Positions 1,596 to 8,472 of a DNA stretch of 12,070 bases are shown here, in pieces; the stretch's first letter is position 1; the number at the start of each line of letters is the position of its first letter. Origin of the DNA: a virus. Taxonomy: Duplodnaviria > Heunggongvirae > Uroviricota > Caudoviricetes. Under the pieces are notes generated by a model, which had not been told where the DNA came from, searched no databases, and saw nothing but the letters and a program-made list of their open reading frames with translations. The position numbers were made by a program, and so were the translations under genes. The DNA lies in the IMG/VR virus record IMGVR_UViG_3300029721_000142; one strand, written 5' to 3'.

Positions 1596-1784
1596 GTGTT
1601 AAGCACAGATCGCTTTATACGTGAAAAAGAATGTCAGCAACTTACAGGCCTGAGCCGCTCATGTCGGTACCGCCTGGAAAAAGCCGGACAATTCCCATCA
1701 CGGCGTAAGCTGGGCGGTCGTTCCGTTGGCTGGTCTTTATCCGAAGTTCTGGCATGGAAGGACAGCTGCGAGGCAGTTCACTAA
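1596..1784 (+). CDS. alpA: AlpA-family phage transcriptional regulator (small HTH, excisionase-like)
   Basis: 62-aa ORF with GTG start at 1596 and RBS aaaggggga upstream. The sequence LTGLSRSCRYRLEKAGQFPSRRKLGGRSVGWSLSEVLAWK matches the AlpA family pattern (ITGLSRST.YRL...G.FP....LG.R.V.W...E...W). Position immediately after int is typical of P4-like elements and Gram-negative PICIs. Confidence 0.85.
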   Translation: MLSTDRFIREKECQQLTGLSRSCRYRLEKAGQFPSRRKLGGRSVGWSLSEVLAWKDSCEAVH

Positions 1785-1836
1785 TCAGGCTGGCGGCACA
1801 CAGCCGCCACCCATCCACTAATACAGAGATCTAACC

Positions 1837-2212
1837 ATGAATACTGGATATTCTCCCGAACAAGGGCGGGGCTTCGTTCGTCCTGAAAAACAGAATCTGC
1901 AAAATTTTGCCGAAATTATTCCGGTTATTTCCGGCCTTACTGGCGGGAGTGAAACCAATATTGCTAACGCCAGAGCGTTGCAGATGTTTGATGATAAAAA
2001 GGGAGTAAATTTAACTTACACCCCTGACGGCAATCAGAATATGAGCATTATCTCTGAGTCAGGTTTCTACAAACTAATAAAAACAAAAAGCGCCCCGTTG
2101 CCGGAGCGCCTTTGTGAACAATTAACCTACTGCGCAAAAAATGAATCTGAGCAGTGGGATTATATCAACCATGTGGAGAAGCGCCACAATTGCCGAATAA
2201 CGGGCAAAACAA
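1837..2212 (+). pseudogene. Protein-like 5' part of a 423-codon ORF (1837..3108); probable 3'-truncated gene remnant, possibly with a Bro-N/antirepressor-like fragment
   Basis: The first ~125 codons have normal protein composition (ISESGFYKLIKTKSAPLPERL is faintly Bro-N-like). From about 2212 to 2922 the same frame becomes Cys/Ser/Arg-rich nonsense while the opposite strand holds two well-formed small genes and a terminator. The frame reopens as a plausible small gene only at 2923. No in-frame stop exists before 3108. Confidence 0.3.
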
Positions 2213-2233
2213 AGGCCACCCGCTACGGTGGCC
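2201..2233 (-). terminator. Rho-independent terminator for the minus-strand two-gene operon
   Basis: Perfect 7-bp stem GGCCACC / GGTGGCC (2214-2220 and 2227-2233) with a 6-nt loop. On the minus strand it is followed by TTTGTTTTG. It lies about 80 nt downstream of the 62-aa gene stop. Confidence 0.5.
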
Positions 2234-2312
2234 CCTCGACACAAGCTACACGTTATCCCCAACGCATGAGCATTGCCAACAATGCCACATTTGCGGCTGG
2301 TGGGCAATGCAA

Positions 2313-2501
2313 TCAGTCTGGTTCAGTTCGTTGCCATACCTGCAATGAGCGCTTTTCCCTGTACTCTTTAAGGAATTGCTCAAGGGCAAAAGCACATGGC
2401 GCGAATCTTTCTGATTCATGCTCTATCTTTCTGCGCCGTCTTTTCCGTGCCGGTGATAATGTTTTGGTCAATTCTTTATCGGTCATTGTGTTGTCCTGCA
2501 T
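2313..2501 (-). CDS. Small basic protein (62 aa), downstream partner of the RHH gene; function unknown
   Basis: ORF in the same frame and operon as the RHH gene. Contains an arginine/lysine cluster (ARKRRRRK) followed by a predicted helical segment. An alternative start exists at the second Met (MTDKEL...). Confidence 0.45.
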   Translation of the reverse strand: MQDNTMTDKELTKTLSPARKRRRRKIEHESERFAPCAFALEQFLKEYREKRSLQVWQRTEPD

Positions 2502-2543
2502 AGCAATGCGCCGTAGTTCCTCACACCACGGCGCTGATGGTGA

Positions 2544-2723
2544 TTACTCTGGTTCTTTGGCCTTGCGCCGCTGGCGATATTCAACTTCTCGTTTTAATGC
2601 CGCAGTAACAAATTGCCCCGTACTTTCGCCAGGCATTTTTACCGCCTCAACATTGTTCATAACTTCATGCGGAACCCTTGCCGCAACGGTTTGTGATTTT
2701 GCGTTTACTGCTTTTGTCGCCAT
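2544..2723 (-). CDS. Ribbon-helix-helix (CopG/Arc/MetJ-like) DNA-binding protein, 59 aa; candidate repressor or antitoxin
   Basis: Hand-translated from the minus strand (below the ORF-track size cutoff): MATKAVNAKSQTVAARVPHEVMNNVEAVKMPGESTGQFVTAALKREVEYRQRRKAKEPE. Layout is beta strand (TVAARVP), helix A, loop, helix B, typical of RHH proteins. RBS GAGGGG sits 7 nt upstream of the ATG and an in-frame stop lies 5 codons upstream. It faces the operator cluster at 2773-2826. Confidence 0.65.
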   Translation of the reverse strand: MATKAVNAKSQTVAARVPHEVMNNVEAVKMPGESTGQFVTAALKREVEYRQRRKAKEPE

Positions 2724-2772
2724 GTGGTGTACCCCTCATAAAAAACAAATGCAGTATGCAGGAAAAAAAATA

Positions 2773-2826
2773 AGTGTTCAACACTTGACGTGTTTAACAC
2801 CTGGGTTTAAATTGGTGTTCAACACC
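2773..2826. promoter_or_regulatory. Operator cluster: three copies of the palindrome GTGTT(C/T)AACAC overlapping divergent promoters
   Basis: Seen directly: aGTGTTcAACACt (2773-2785), GTGTTtAACAC (2790-2800), gGTGTTcAACACc (2814-2826). A plus-strand promoter candidate is TTGACG (2785-2790), 17-nt spacer, TAAATT (2808-2813). A minus-strand promoter candidate is TTGAAC, 17-nt spacer, CATACT upstream of the RHH gene. Operators overlap the -35, spacer and +1 regions. Confidence 0.6.
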
Positions 2827-2922
2827 TTGTTGGCGCAAGGTGCAGAAACGACGAAACCCGGCAGTGCGCTAACACTAACCGGGCTTCTAACCACCAACGA
2901 TAGCGAAAGTATCGAGGTAGCT

Positions 2923-3108
2923 ATGAGAAATCATACCACACACCCGCAAGGGCGGGACTCGCACGACCTGAATAAATACATCTGGCGTTTTATCGCCCTG
3001 AGCACGGCACAACCGCGCGTGATTACCATCGAGGCCACCAGCGAACAGGAAGCGCGTCAGCAATCTCCTGATGGCTGCGTGATGGTATTCGCTGCCCGTA
3101 TTCGCTAG
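2923..3108 (+). CDS. Small protein (61 aa), tentatively Icd-like/Ash-region-like; first gene of the early operon
   Basis: ATG at 2923 with RBS GAGGT 5 nt upstream. Protein MRNHTTHPQGRDSHDLNKYIWRFIALSTAQPRVITIEATSEQEARQQSPDGCVMVFAARIR. The ATSE.EAR....FAAR motif resembles small Icd-like proteins found upstream of replication genes in P4-like prophages (from memory, unverified). Confidence 0.45.
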   Translation: MRNHTTHPQGRDSHDLNKYIWRFIALSTAQPRVITIEATSEQEARQQSPDGCVMVFAARIR

Positions 3109-3118
3109 GGGGTAGGCC

Positions 3119-3340
3119 ATGTGCAATAAAACCACACCGGACGCAGCAGCCGCCGCGCTCACTACGCTGATGCACGCGCTTATTGATATTGAATGCACGG
3201 CAGAGCTTGCGCAGGGAGAAGAACAGAAAGACCGGACAACGTTCGCCCAGGAATGTATCCGATACATCGCAACGCGGTCACTGAATGACGCTAAAAATAT
3301 TCTTGTTGCCGATTGTGAAAATGGGGGGGGTTATGCGTGA
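3119..3340 (+). CDS. Hypothetical protein (73 aa)
   Basis: ORF with RBS gggggtagg upstream, tightly packed in the early operon. The C-terminus runs through a G8 homopolymer and overlaps the next gene by 8 nt. Confidence 0.5.
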   Translation: MCNKTTPDAAAAALTTLMHALIDIECTAELAQGEEQKDRTTFAQECIRYIATRSLNDAKNILVADCENGGGYA

Positions 3341-6863: not shown

Positions 6864-7070
6864 ATGGCTGAAGAGAAAAAAGGCGGTGTTTCGGTGTACA
6901 TAAGCCCCGACATCGTGAAGGCGCTCAAGGAACGCCACCAGCAGAACGTAAAAGCAGGCATTGCGGCAGGACTTGATCCGCTGGCGATGGTTGAGCCGTC
7001 AACAGGCTGGCAGGTACGCGCCTATTTACGCGCGGCGCTGGGTATGAATCAGGTTCACGGGGGTGAATAA
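6864..7070 (+). CDS. Hypothetical protein (68 aa), first gene of the late/capsid operon
   Basis: ORF with a good RBS. Its stop overlaps the capsid gene start (TAATG), implying translational coupling. Function unknown; a scaffold or size-determination role is speculation. Confidence 0.6.
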   Translation: MAEEKKGGVSVYISPDIVKALKERHQQNVKAGIAAGLDPLAMVEPSTGWQVRAYLRAALGMNQVHGGE

Positions 7071-8125
7071 TGACAGTAAAAGCAATGGCACTTAACACTA
7101 ACCAGCTTTTTGCGTACCTGAATCGCGGGGATATTGCGGAATTTAAATTCAGTCCGCTGTTTACCACGCTGTTTTTCCCGAACGTGGCGACATTCAGCAC
7201 GCAAAACATCATGCTGGATACCCTGGACATTGAAGAAGTCACCATGTCGGCGTTTTGTTCGCCTATGGTGGGTAGCCAGGTTCAGCGCGATAAAGGGTAC
7301 GAAACCAGCACGATTAAACCTGGCTACATGAAGCCAAAGCACGAAATCGATCCAACGAAAACCATCATGCGCATGGCTGGAGAAGATCCGGCACAGCTTA
7401 ACGACCCTACCTATCGCCGTATGCGCCTGATTACTGGCAATATGCGCCGCCAGATAAACGCCATAAAAGCGCGCGTGGAATGGCTGGCGGTAAATGCGGT
7501 AACGACCGGAAAAAACATCATTGAAGGCGAAGGCATAGAGCGCTATGAAATCGACTGGAAGATACCGGAAAAAAACATCATAGAGCAGGCCGACGGGAAA
7601 AAATGGTCAGAGCAGGACAAAGAAACCCACGATCCAATCTATGATATCGAACTATACGCCGATCAGGCTGGTTGCCCCGCAAACGTCATGATTATGGGCG
7701 CTGAGGTATGGCGAACGTTACGCAGCTTTAAAAAATTCCGTGAGCTGTACGATCTTTCCCGTGGTTCAGAGTCCGCCGCAGAGCTGGCCTGTAAAAACCT
7801 GGGCGAAGTGGTGAGCTTTAAAGGCTATCTGGGCGATATTGCCCTTATCGTCTATTCCGGCAAATACACTGACAGCGACGGCACAGAAAAATATTTCCTT
7901 GAGCCTGATTTGCTTGTCCTGGGCAACACCAACAATAAAGGGCTGGTGGCCTATGGTGCGATTATGGATCAGGACGCAGTAAGAACGGGCGCAACGCAAA
8001 ACATGTTTTACCCGAAAAACTGGATTGAGGACGGCGATCCGGCGATTGAGTACGTGCAGACGCACAGCGCACCGCAGCCGGTTCCGGCAGATATTCGCAA
8101 ATTTGTTACCGTCAAAATTGGTTAA
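7070..8125 (+). CDS. Major capsid protein, lambda gpE-like (HK97 fold)
   Basis: 351 aa. Blocks of recalled similarity to lambda gpE (341 aa): EFKFSPLFTTLFF vs KFKFDPLFLRLFF; KPGYMKPKHEIDP vs TPGYVKPKHEVNP; DPTYRRMRLITGNMR vs DPAYRRRRIIMQNMR; KWSEQDKETHDPIYDIELYA vs EWSKRDKSTYDPTDDIEAYA; YPKNWIEDGDPAIEY vs YPKNWVTTGDPAREF. Similar length. Confidence 0.9.
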   Translation: MTVKAMALNTNQLFAYLNRGDIAEFKFSPLFTTLFFPNVATFSTQNIMLDTLDIEEVTMSAFCSPMVGSQVQRDKGYETSTIKPGYMKPKHEIDPTKTIMRMAGEDPAQLNDPTYRRMRLITGNMRRQINAIKARVEWLAVNAVTTGKNIIEGEGIERYEIDWKIPEKNIIEQADGKKWSEQDKETHDPIYDIELYADQAGCPANVMIMGAEVWRTLRSFKKFRELYDLSRGSESAAELACKNLGEVVSFKGYLGDIALIVYSGKYTDSDGTEKYFLEPDLLVLGNTNNKGLVAYGAIMDQDAVRTGATQNMFYPKNWIEDGDPAIEYVQTHSAPQPVPADIRKFVTVKIG

Positions 8126-8136
8126 CGGGGGATTCT

Positions 8137-8472
8137 ATGGACACTCCATACATTGAGTTATTTGCAGGCAGTCAGCAGGTCGCCACGACGCTGGTACATT
8201 TTGCCGCTGATGCTGGCGTTATTCAGGAATTTACCCCGCTGATGCTGGCGGACAATGGCGAGTTTAAGCCGTGGGATGGTAAGGAATCTGGCAAGGCTGT
8301 TTATCTGACCTCGTACCCTGTGGACACGTCAAAGCAGAAATCAGCACAGTGTTACAAGACGGGGATATTCAATATTGCCGCCGTTAACTGGCCTGAGAGC
8401 GTCGACACCGATGCGAAAAAATGCGCCGCCTTTGCGGGTTCCGGCGTATCCGTTCAGCCGCTGGCCCGATAA
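8137..8472 (+). CDS. Head decoration protein, lambda gpD-like
   Basis: 111 aa vs lambda gpD 110 aa. Recalled motif similarity: TPLMLADNGEFKPWDG vs TPLMLDTSSRKLVAWDG; YKTGIF vs YKSGTF; WPE; KKCAAFAGSGVS vs KKRTAFAGTAIS. Gene order is E-like then D-like, the reverse of lambda. Confidence 0.85.
   Translation: MDTPYIELFAGSQQVATTLVHFAADAGVIQEFTPLMLADNGEFKPWDGKESGKAVYLTSYPVDTSKQKSAQCYKTGIFNIAAVNWPESVDTDAKKCAAFAGSGVSVQPLAR

Follow-up and report, generated by a model that had tools for sequence, protein, structure and literature searches.

Within a 12,070-nucleotide (nt) stretch of viral DNA, the IMG/VR record IMGVR_UViG_3300029721_000142 (Caudoviricetes; hereafter the window), an open reading frame (ORF) of 423 codons lies downstream of the integrase and alpA genes. 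Only phoQ and a helicase gene form longer open runs in the window, and from stop to stop the frame of the ORF stays open for 428 codons (1822-3105). Judged by its similarities to related loci, this ORF is a composite of three parts, in which codons 1-81 are an antirepressor remnant, codons 82-362 form a stop-free stretch that we call the corridor, and codons 363-423 make up an Icd-like gene. Opposite the corridor, on the minus strand, a small operon is nested. The ORF and the features found in it are listed below by position and strand.

1837..3108, plus strand: the composite 423-codon ORF, from ATG at 1837 to TAG at 3106-3108, publicly named 'host cell division inhibitor Icd-like protein'
1837..1982, plus strand: remnant of an AntA/AntB-type antirepressor 5' end, codons 1 to ~48, including that gene's start codon (nucleotide and protein similarity)
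1975..2079, plus strand: internal BRO-N antirepressor fragment, codons ~47-81 (92% nt identity)
2080..2922, plus strand: the stop-free corridor, 281 codons (82-362) with 0 stops, in the register whose wobble positions coincide with those of the nested minus-strand genes
2086..2113, minus strand: terminator hairpin with U-run (terminator scan; -20.5 kcal/mol, z -4.99), homologous to DNA just 3' of intact ant genes
2214..2233, minus strand: second terminator-like hairpin of the nested operon (-18.5 kcal/mol, z -2.2), followed by UUUGUUUU
2313..2501, minus strand: gene for a protein of 62 amino acids (aa), second in the nested operon (phrog_21027, E 1.6e-15)
2544..2723, minus strand: YlcI/YnfO-family gene, 59 aa, first in the nested operon (NCBIfam NF041551, YlcI_YnfO_N; phrog_949, E 8.6e-22)
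2774-2784, 2790-2800 and 2815-2825, no strand: three 11-bp palindromes GTGTTYAACAC in the ylcI-icd spacer, putative operators
2785..2813, plus strand: sigma-70-like promoter (TTGACG, 17-nt spacer, TAAATT) facing icd, from a consensus scan only
2850..2922, minus strand: candidate gene for a SymR-like cis-antisense small RNA that ends in a terminator hairpin (Rfam RF01809, below the gathering score)
2923..3108, plus strand: Icd-like gene, 61 aa here, preceded by a GAGG ribosome-binding site of its own (2914-2917)

An initial annotation, made from the letters of the window, had doubted that the 423 codons are one conventional gene, and this doubt was well founded. Matches to family models are confined to the two ends, with weak BRO-N/antirepressor similarity at residues ~42-91 and an Icd-like match (NF033153) that spans only codons 381-423, while the middle is without plus-frame conservation. 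The purifying selection on amino acids expected along an ordinary single gene was not found over the whole ORF, where substitution periodicity is restricted to icd. Homologues do conserve the open frame over the entire length, an observation that the initial annotation would have counted against its own reading, but they do not conserve the amino-acid sequence of its middle. Between 2080 and 2922, the frame of the ORF has no stop codon, whereas the other two plus frames have 14 and 15. Under a first-order Markov model, 9.8 stops are expected in this interval and the probability that none occurs is ~5e-5, in agreement with the earlier remark that the stop-free run is statistically unusual; for the parts of the corridor not opposite a minus-strand gene, 6.3 stops are expected (P ~2e-3). 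Along its path, the corridor crosses the two minus-strand terminators, the antisense of the 62-aa gene and of ylcI, the promoter/operator region and the antisense small RNA.

The stop-free frame is kept in ~95 E. coli and IMG/VR loci and in nine further Enterobacterales taxa. In the window and all but one of 13 related E. coli loci (13 of 14 in total), 0-1 icd-frame stops were counted over the 700-1260 nt from the upstream stop to the icd start, against 12-28 stops in the other plus frames. About 85% of 80 IMG/VR loci, which were retrieved by Icd peptide patterns alone, display an open run of 280-480 codons ending at the icd stop. The seven short exceptions still contain a 209-401-codon open frame through the nested cassette, which is off the icd phase via a spacer indel, and in six of them this shifted frame overlaps the icd-phase open stretch. 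The nested module itself is mosaic, with at least 13 protein clusters below ~60% identity, and its variants include YlcI types of 59, 65 and 99-106 aa, CopG-like types, several versions of the second gene, and one locus with four nested ORFs. Every nested gene nevertheless occupies a single register relative to the open frame, such that the third codon positions of both strands coincide. Islands of the same architecture were found in other genera through YlcI homologues and exact-protein look-ups, namely in Salmonella, Klebsiella, Pectobacterium carotovorum, P. zantedeschiae, Serratia, Proteus, Xenorhabdus, Rouxiella and one further member of the Enterobacteriaceae. All 11 loci from other genera lack stops opposite ylcI in the shared-wobble register and have 1-5 in the other two; their open runs measure 180-521 codons, most of them extending from at or before the stop of the upstream gene to the stop of the first downstream gene. 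Besides, the phage-like element vB_KppS-Ant (Icd 65% identical) carries a 324-codon ORF whose ATG overlaps an upstream TGA (ATGA) and in which ylcI is nested in the same register. An Icd search of a phage collection gave a single match, and a scan of genome contigs with Icd alignment patterns, which proved too specific, returned one locus only.

The avoidance of stops is specific to the corridor register. Across 91 distinct nested-gene sequences (6,094 codons), it holds 0 stops versus 310 and 251 in the other two registers. A plus-strand stop in this register requires a minus-strand Tyr codon after a codon ending in C or T, or a His or Gln codon after a codon ending in T. When synonymous codons were drawn at random with the proteins fixed, each nested gene remained open with a probability of 0.06-0.9, and the joint probability was 1e-6 to 1e-8 over 13 clusters sharing <60% identity; for the loci of other genera, treated as independent, it was 1e-5.8. 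Moreover, 179 context-de-replicated at-risk sites include no stop-making choice, compared with 21.7 expected from the usage of the same genes elsewhere, and all 33 of 33 Tyr codons follow a purine-ending codon. The at-risk codons turn over between genera (TCG/TCA/TCC, CCC/CCG/CCA, GGG/GGC, CGC/CGG/AGA) and never end in T. Stop avoidance also extends into non-coding DNA. The ylcI-icd spacer (61 distinct sequences) contains 13 icd-frame stops versus 382 and 271 in the other frames, and its phase is kept in 10 of 14 length classes, corresponding to 54 of the 61 sequences. General codon-pair bias was ruled out with control genes of the same islands, which have 0.027-0.033 stops per codon in the corridor register, and a classical shadow ORF with the codon-aligned antisense register, which is full of stops.

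The amino-acid sequence of the corridor in the plus frame is not conserved, and the minus-strand proteins are. Opposite ylcI, the mean BLOSUM62 score at replaced sites is +0.09 in the minus frame versus -1.18 in the plus frame, where replacements look random; differences are distributed 8196/4455/12950 over the minus codon positions. The two minus-strand genes proposed by the initial annotation are thus the ones conserved at the protein level. Spacer substitutions are without codon periodicity (58/63/65), and those in icd are concentrated at codon position 3 (26/26/48). From these patterns we show that the frame is kept open by selection on stop codons only, a selection that reaches the synonymous codons of the nested genes and the lengths of the spacers. 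Frame-specific exclusion of stops in synonymous sites, spacers and indel lengths implies a triplet reading, and therefore translation of the plus strand. As what is encoded can vary freely, uninterrupted translation itself appears to be the selected property.

The 5' part of the ORF has a history of its own. Positions 1780-1982 are 91% identical to the 5' end of an intact 266-aa ant gene (locus L003), the encoded remnant matching the proteins P0026/P0028 as far as '...ARAL', and positions 1975-2079 show 92% nt identity to codons ~63-98 of intact 192-aa BRO-N genes (L012/L020). A homology search with the N-terminal 125 aa, as the initial annotation had proposed, recovered two full-length relatives, the intact BRO-N protein P0059 (192 aa) and P0011 (175 aa), in which the AntA/BRO chimera is already present. 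Both go on '...FYKLIARSRKATTPG...', continuing past the breakpoint as '...FYKLIARSRK...' and terminating '...EFYFGNRIQ'. Homology of the window to real proteins stops after '...FYKLI', at codon 81 (nt 2079), and not at about codon 125, to which a real protein had been thought to extend. No Pfam match to the AntA domain (PF08346) was found in the ORF, where the AntA/AntB homology covers the first ~48 codons of the 266-aa genes and ends before most of that domain. A complete BRO-N domain (PF02498) is likewise missing, with 17.2 bits against a cutoff of 25.6 over model positions 34-85 of 96; the BRO-N piece is a fragment and not a family member, its ~35 codons being homologous to internal codons of the 192-aa genes. 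Positions 2079-2135 are 91% identical to non-coding DNA 16 nt past the intact ant stop (L003 3154-3210), the first hairpin included, and positions 2205-2330 are 73% identical to DNA just 3' of an intact BRO-N gene, the second hairpin included. With breakpoints at ~1980 and 2079, the 5' part is, to judge from these alignments, a recombination/deletion scar that joins the ant 5' end, an internal BRO-N piece, the ant 3' flank and the BRO-N 3' flank, and codons 1-81 are accordingly read as a dead chimeric antirepressor remnant still bearing that gene's start codon.

The initial annotation was therefore right that the 5' part is a truncated gene remnant, namely an AntA/BRO-N chimera with intact relatives of 175, 192 and 266 aa. 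Its proposal that a ribbon-helix-helix (RHH) cassette had truncated the gene by insertion did not hold. In L003, L012, L013 and L020, the oppositely oriented cassette follows an intact AntA/AntB (266 aa) or BRO-N (192 aa) gene, and it lies 3' of intact genes in ETEC4077, 2014C-3599, strain 130119, many IMG/VR contigs and other genera. Nor is the stop-free run a by-product of the truncation, as the same register is open in islands with an intact upstream gene and bears the signatures of selection described above. In most architectures with intact ant or bro, the corridor start codon overlaps or abuts the stop of the upstream gene. In the lineage of the window, a deletion or recombination event would have joined the remnant in frame to the corridor to yield the 423-codon ORF, be it by chance or by selection.

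The operon nested opposite the corridor ends in terminator-like hairpins. A minus-strand hairpin does exist where the initial annotation had placed a terminator, at 2214-2233 rather than 2201-2233, and a stronger second one lies at 2086-2113; hairpins like that at 2214-2233 also occur 3' of intact BRO-N genes (L020, L053). The 62-aa gene carries the conserved motif 'RFAPCAFALE.FLKEY' and has many diverged variants, every one in the same register. The NCBI Prokaryotic Genome Annotation Pipeline (PGAP) calls a 57-aa version, WP_000130015.1, in CFT073 and others. Homologues of this second gene in L012-L096 measure 55-75 aa, with a core of 'RFAPCAF.LE.FLKEY' or 'KFALEDF' and highly variable ends, and the gap between the gene and ylcI is 3, 42 or 57 nt, always a multiple of three. 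The product of the first gene belongs to the YlcI/YnfO family (NF041551/DUF3950), with 59.7 bits against a cutoff of 30 over model positions 1-42 of 42; two of 11 YlcI variants match Pfam DUF3950, and orthologues were found in 9 other Enterobacterales taxa. We regard it as a putative DNA-binding repressor. A scan of YlcI against Pfam members for RHH similarity gave the weak matches PSK_trans_fac (E 0.011), HicB_lk_antitox (0.22) and CB_ParB_C (0.012), with no RHH family significant; a PDB profile search gave no match, and a Foldseek search of the AlphaFold model against PDB gave no significant one. The AlphaFold monomer (pLDDT 78), consisting of an N-terminal segment and two helices, is compatible with an RHH fold, and the homologue P0301 is named 'CopG-like ribbon-helix-helix' by one source.

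Between ylcI and icd, the three palindromes bracket the plus-strand promoter-like site, and a GTGTTYAACAC count as high was seen in 0 of 200 shuffles. At other loci, the repeats occupy fixed positions and their core tracks the YlcI variant (GTGTTCAACAC, GTGTAAGACA, GTGGCTGACA, GTGCGATTCA, GTGTGTTTCA, GTGAATACCA, TGTGCGCACA), and a TTGAC/TTGAA box right before the second repeat is kept across the operator variants. Such covariation is the pattern expected of a putative repressor and its operators, and it suggests that repressor and operators may form swappable specificity modules. The candidate antisense RNA matches the full length of the SymR model RF01809 with 33.3 bits (E 9e-5; 2700-3000, 301 nt searched), below the gathering score of 61 bits. 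At gathering thresholds, Rfam gave no match in the window, and no C4/IsrK-type RNA was detected even at permissive E-values. The RNA folds with -36.6 kcal/mol (z -4.46 versus shuffles), and six pairs in its 3' stem, the terminator, are maintained by changes on both sides (54 sequences). In structure and position it is SymR-like, with a conserved fold and a cis-antisense location over the translation start of its target; its 5' end lies directly against the ATG and is the complement of the icd GAGG box. A Klebsiella locus has a sub-threshold RF01809 match of 41.1 bits at the same position. By eye, a minus-strand extended -10-like box, TGGTATGAT, was seen just upstream of the RNA 5' end, within the first icd codons.

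The 3' end of the ORF is a separate Icd-like gene starting at ATG 2923, as the initial annotation had supposed. It heads the replication operon, and its residues 19-61 match NF033153 (69 bits, cutoff 25) over model positions 1-47 of 48. The gene owes its name to P1 Icd, and cell-division inhibition is a putative function. Relative to 99.9%-identical relatives, the window has T instead of C at 3106, which changes CAG to TAG and shortens Icd from 68 to 61 aa, with the loss of 7 residues. This TAG also abolishes the 11-nt overlap between the icd stop (3127-3129 in relatives) and the ATG of the next ORF at 3119.

Public annotation of the ORF is inconsistent. Of the public contigs, 16 encode the exact 423-aa product, 353 a 430-aa form and 452 the 428-aa form, c1487. 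For the same 99.9%-identical DNA, PGAP offers four different annotations: a 310-aa Icd-like protein; a BRO-N pseudogene with ylcI and a 68-aa Icd; a 57-aa hypothetical protein with ylcI and a 135-aa Icd; and a 57-aa hypothetical protein with ylcI and a 66-aa Icd. At CATG 2721-2724, the minus-strand ylcI start (2723-2721) meets an in-frame plus-strand ATG (2722-2724), which is the start chosen by PGAP for its 134-135-aa 'Icd-like' models. In L001, L003, L008 and L016, PGAP pseudogene calls labelled 'BRO-N domain-containing protein, missing C-terminus' or 'Icd-like protein, missing C-terminus' span the antisense of ylcI and the 62-aa gene. Pseudogene calls in relatives appear to stem from alignment to long corridor ORFs that had been deposited as proteins, an error that propagates itself.

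We assign the window to the EcCICFT073-type phage-inducible chromosomal islands (PICIs), inserted in the roxA-phoQ interval, on the basis of int, alpA, a replication module, a single orientation, the chromosomal site and closeness to the prototype. Two genes precede the ORF.

1-1230: integrase gene, the first gene in the window
1596..1784, plus strand: alpA, AlpA-family regulator gene, upstream in the island operon (Pfam Phage_AlpA, E 3e-18)

The alpA genes of relatives are labelled AlpA family or HTH regulator by PGAP. The gene order in the window is integrase, alpA, the 423-codon ORF, several small ORFs, DUF4222, an AAA_25/RepA-type helicase, SSB and E/D homologues, and the downstream plus-strand genes overlap or abut one another. 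On the far side, phoQ (minus strand) adjoins the island, and E. coli NCTC86 has a near-identical island next to roxA. Related sequence is present in ~1,750 of 5,426 complete genomes, and CFT073 matches 81% of the query 1780-3160 at 96.8% identity. Positions 7070-8472 encode two homologues of lambda proteins, one of 351 aa resembling major capsid protein E (Pfam E 2e-52) and one of 111 aa resembling head decoration protein D, in keeping with the capsid-related genes described for EcCICFT073-type islands.

The direct counterpart of the ORF in EcCICFT073, the prototype Gram-negative PICI, is c1487 (428 aa, AAN79956.1, 'hypothetical protein c1487'), which has the same position after int and alpA and a matching island context; the window copy ends 7 codons earlier, at the TAG at 3106. 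From the gene order, we infer that c1487 is the 'ORF3' of the published study, in which a reporter fused to EcCICFT073 ORF3 depends on AlpA (PMC6092414). These islands are described as AlpA-induced and 'transcribed unidirectionally', and the existence of a repressor as unclear; a nested operon, operators, an antisense RNA or a selected stop-free frame are not described there (PMC6092414).

On balance, we lean towards the explanation that translatability is selected, probably to carry AlpA-driven transcription across the antisense module. Transcripts would start upstream, as the AlpA-activated alpA/ant transcript, and ribosomes would translate without a break across ~0.7-1.3 kb of antisense sequence. 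An AlpA from Pseudomonas is reported to act as an antiterminator (PMC7969949), which is a lead only. At 2251-2700, the plus strand has more C than G and is T-rich and A-poor, and about 1 kb of untranslated, pyrimidine-rich antisense RNA with C>G would be an expected Rho substrate. Translation would avert Rho termination on such C-rich RNA, and the translating ribosome would melt or prevent both terminator hairpins. The transcript could thereby reach icd and the replication genes while reading antisense through the repressor operon, and transcripts from the operator-controlled promoter at 2785-2813 would use the icd ribosome-binding site, which antisense RNA could mask. More tentatively, and as a scheme that we consider possible though short of probable, AlpA-type enterobacterial islands would hide within one annotated long gene a control module made of a YlcI-type repressor operon, variant-specific operators and a SymR-like RNA masking the icd start, with a ribosome corridor leading through it. 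The translated antisense transcription set off by AlpA induction would then withstand Rho and the terminators, override the repressor module and turn replication on.

Several points weigh against this explanation. Translation of the corridor is deduced from sequence statistics alone, and the Rho/terminator rationale follows from what is generally known of polarity and from an analogy to P1 immI and P4 immunity. If AlpA were a processive antiterminator, protection by ribosomes might be needless. Loci are related by descent and recombination, so that the calculated probabilities overstate independence, which the loci of other genera and the 13 diverged clusters lessen, but do not remove. Furthermore, some architectures have no obvious ATG at the corridor start, offering GTG or TTG only, the Proteus open run starts 676 nt past the annotated upstream gene, and the runs in Salmonella and Klebsiella end 15-59 nt short of the next gene and are not in frame with it.

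Among the alternatives, that of the initial annotation, a gene truncated by insertion of a regulator cassette and followed by a stop-free run that arose by chance in non-coding or antisense sequence, now seems barely credible. The 5' part is truly a truncated remnant, and the window-only probabilities of ~5e-5 to 2e-3 could turn up in a large scan, but in relatives as well as in other genera the cassette adjoins intact ant/bro genes, the open frame is shared by ~95 loci and nine taxa although the nested genes are mosaic and 40-60% identical, and synonymous sites and spacer lengths carry signatures of selection. We find it very improbable, too, that the frame is a passive by-product of minus-strand constraints such as amino-acid composition, a bias in codon pairs or the base skew that small basic proteins entail. 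In favour of this view, the corridor register shares wobble positions with the minus-strand genes, several Tyr, His and Gln codons follow Glu, Lys, Met or Trp and hence cannot form a stop, and this part of the plus strand is A-poor. Control genes from the same islands nonetheless have stops in this register at the rate given above, the actual proteins would lead one to expect 1-2 stops per gene, and the non-coding spacers are depleted as well (13 vs 382 and 271) and have phase-preserving lengths, none of which minus-strand coding constraints account for.

A real long protein, an N-terminally extended Icd isoform with a sequence-tolerant extension (for example a disordered or membrane-associating tail), is unlikely, though less so than the two preceding alternatives. 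The open frame ends in the conserved Icd domain at most loci, gene callers and PGAP often annotate products of 300-430 aa, and phrog_6196 reaches 24 residues upstream of ATG 2923. Outside icd, however, there is neither amino-acid conservation nor codon periodicity; the extension is the antisense of unrelated cassette variants and wholly different between islands, and in the window it includes a dead antirepressor fragment. The corridor is, moreover, off the icd frame yet open in ~10% of E. coli loci, in Salmonella and in Klebsiella, a finding that fits better with translation mattering than with a fusion protein mattering. To a similarly low degree we entertain selection of corridor translation for a regulatory effect on the nested elements, such as excludon-like silencing of the repressor operon or stripping of the SymR-like RNA off the icd leader. 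The corridor is antisense to the putative repressor, the operators and the small RNA gene, a geometry like that of excludons and antisense-controlled switches, but transcription alone gives antisense interference and there is no sign that ribosomes would be required for it. On sequence data, this effect is inseparable from the selection for translatability that we favour, with which it is compatible.

Selection for translatability has partial parallels in known systems. In the immI region of P1, a small antisense RNA, c4, reportedly targets the icd translation start, and icd translation is said to be needed for ant transcription (work attributed to Biere et al. 1992). The P4 immunity system, from the Deho and Ghisotti laboratory, reportedly uses CI RNA, with translation of a leader ORF suppressing Rho-dependent termination. 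Here too, an Icd-family ORF heads an operon, as in P1, and a small antisense RNA would target the translation start of that ORF. In contrast to P1 and P4, the putative RNA is cis-encoded on the opposite strand and is SymR-like rather than C4-like, and the translated stretch would comprise hundreds of codons running antisense through protein-coding genes; the antirepressor gene lies upstream of icd here and downstream of it in P1. The likeness to SymE/SymR lies in the RNA at 2850-2922. This RNA fits the full SymR model with two hairpins, its loop region GUGUU.GCGCAC is near-identical, and it lies antisense to the ribosome-binding site of the ORF next to it, whereas its score stays under the threshold (33.3 vs 61) and its target is an Icd-like gene and not SymE. 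Excludons, described in Listeria, are long transcripts that run antisense to a divergent neighbour and at the same time act as mRNA for genes further downstream. Similarly, the operon transcript here would read antisense through an oppositely oriented regulatory operon and then into expressed genes; the antisense segment of excludons is described as untranslated, whereas here, to judge from sequence, it is kept translatable at the level of codons. Classical shadow ORFs, which arise from codon bias, are generally described as lying in the codon-aligned antisense register. The corridor resembles them as a long open frame opposite real genes that is prone to miscalls by gene finders, but the codon-aligned register has 310 stops here and the open one, with 0, is the shared-wobble register, and the frame is also open through non-coding spacers and unrelated cassette variants.

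Literature searches on c1487, YlcI/DUF3950, PICIs combined with ribbon-helix-helix, and antisense/Rho/overlap found no description of the corridor feature. If our reading is true, translatability and not protein sequence would be the selected trait of ~300 codons, a clear natural case of a long frame that is selected to stay open without conservation of its product, by way of synonymous codons on the other strand. This bears on how overlapping and antisense ORFs are to be judged and on transcription-translation coupling in foreign DNA, and it would account for the four incompatible gene models as well as for the spread of 300-430-aa 'Icd-like proteins' and 'BRO-N pseudogenes' in databases. For the Gram-negative PICIs, whose published model consists of the activator AlpA and 'unidirectional' transcription (PMC6092414), the locus offers a candidate switch of repressor, operators and antisense RNA, and these islands would, if this is true, possess the repressor whose existence has been called unclear.

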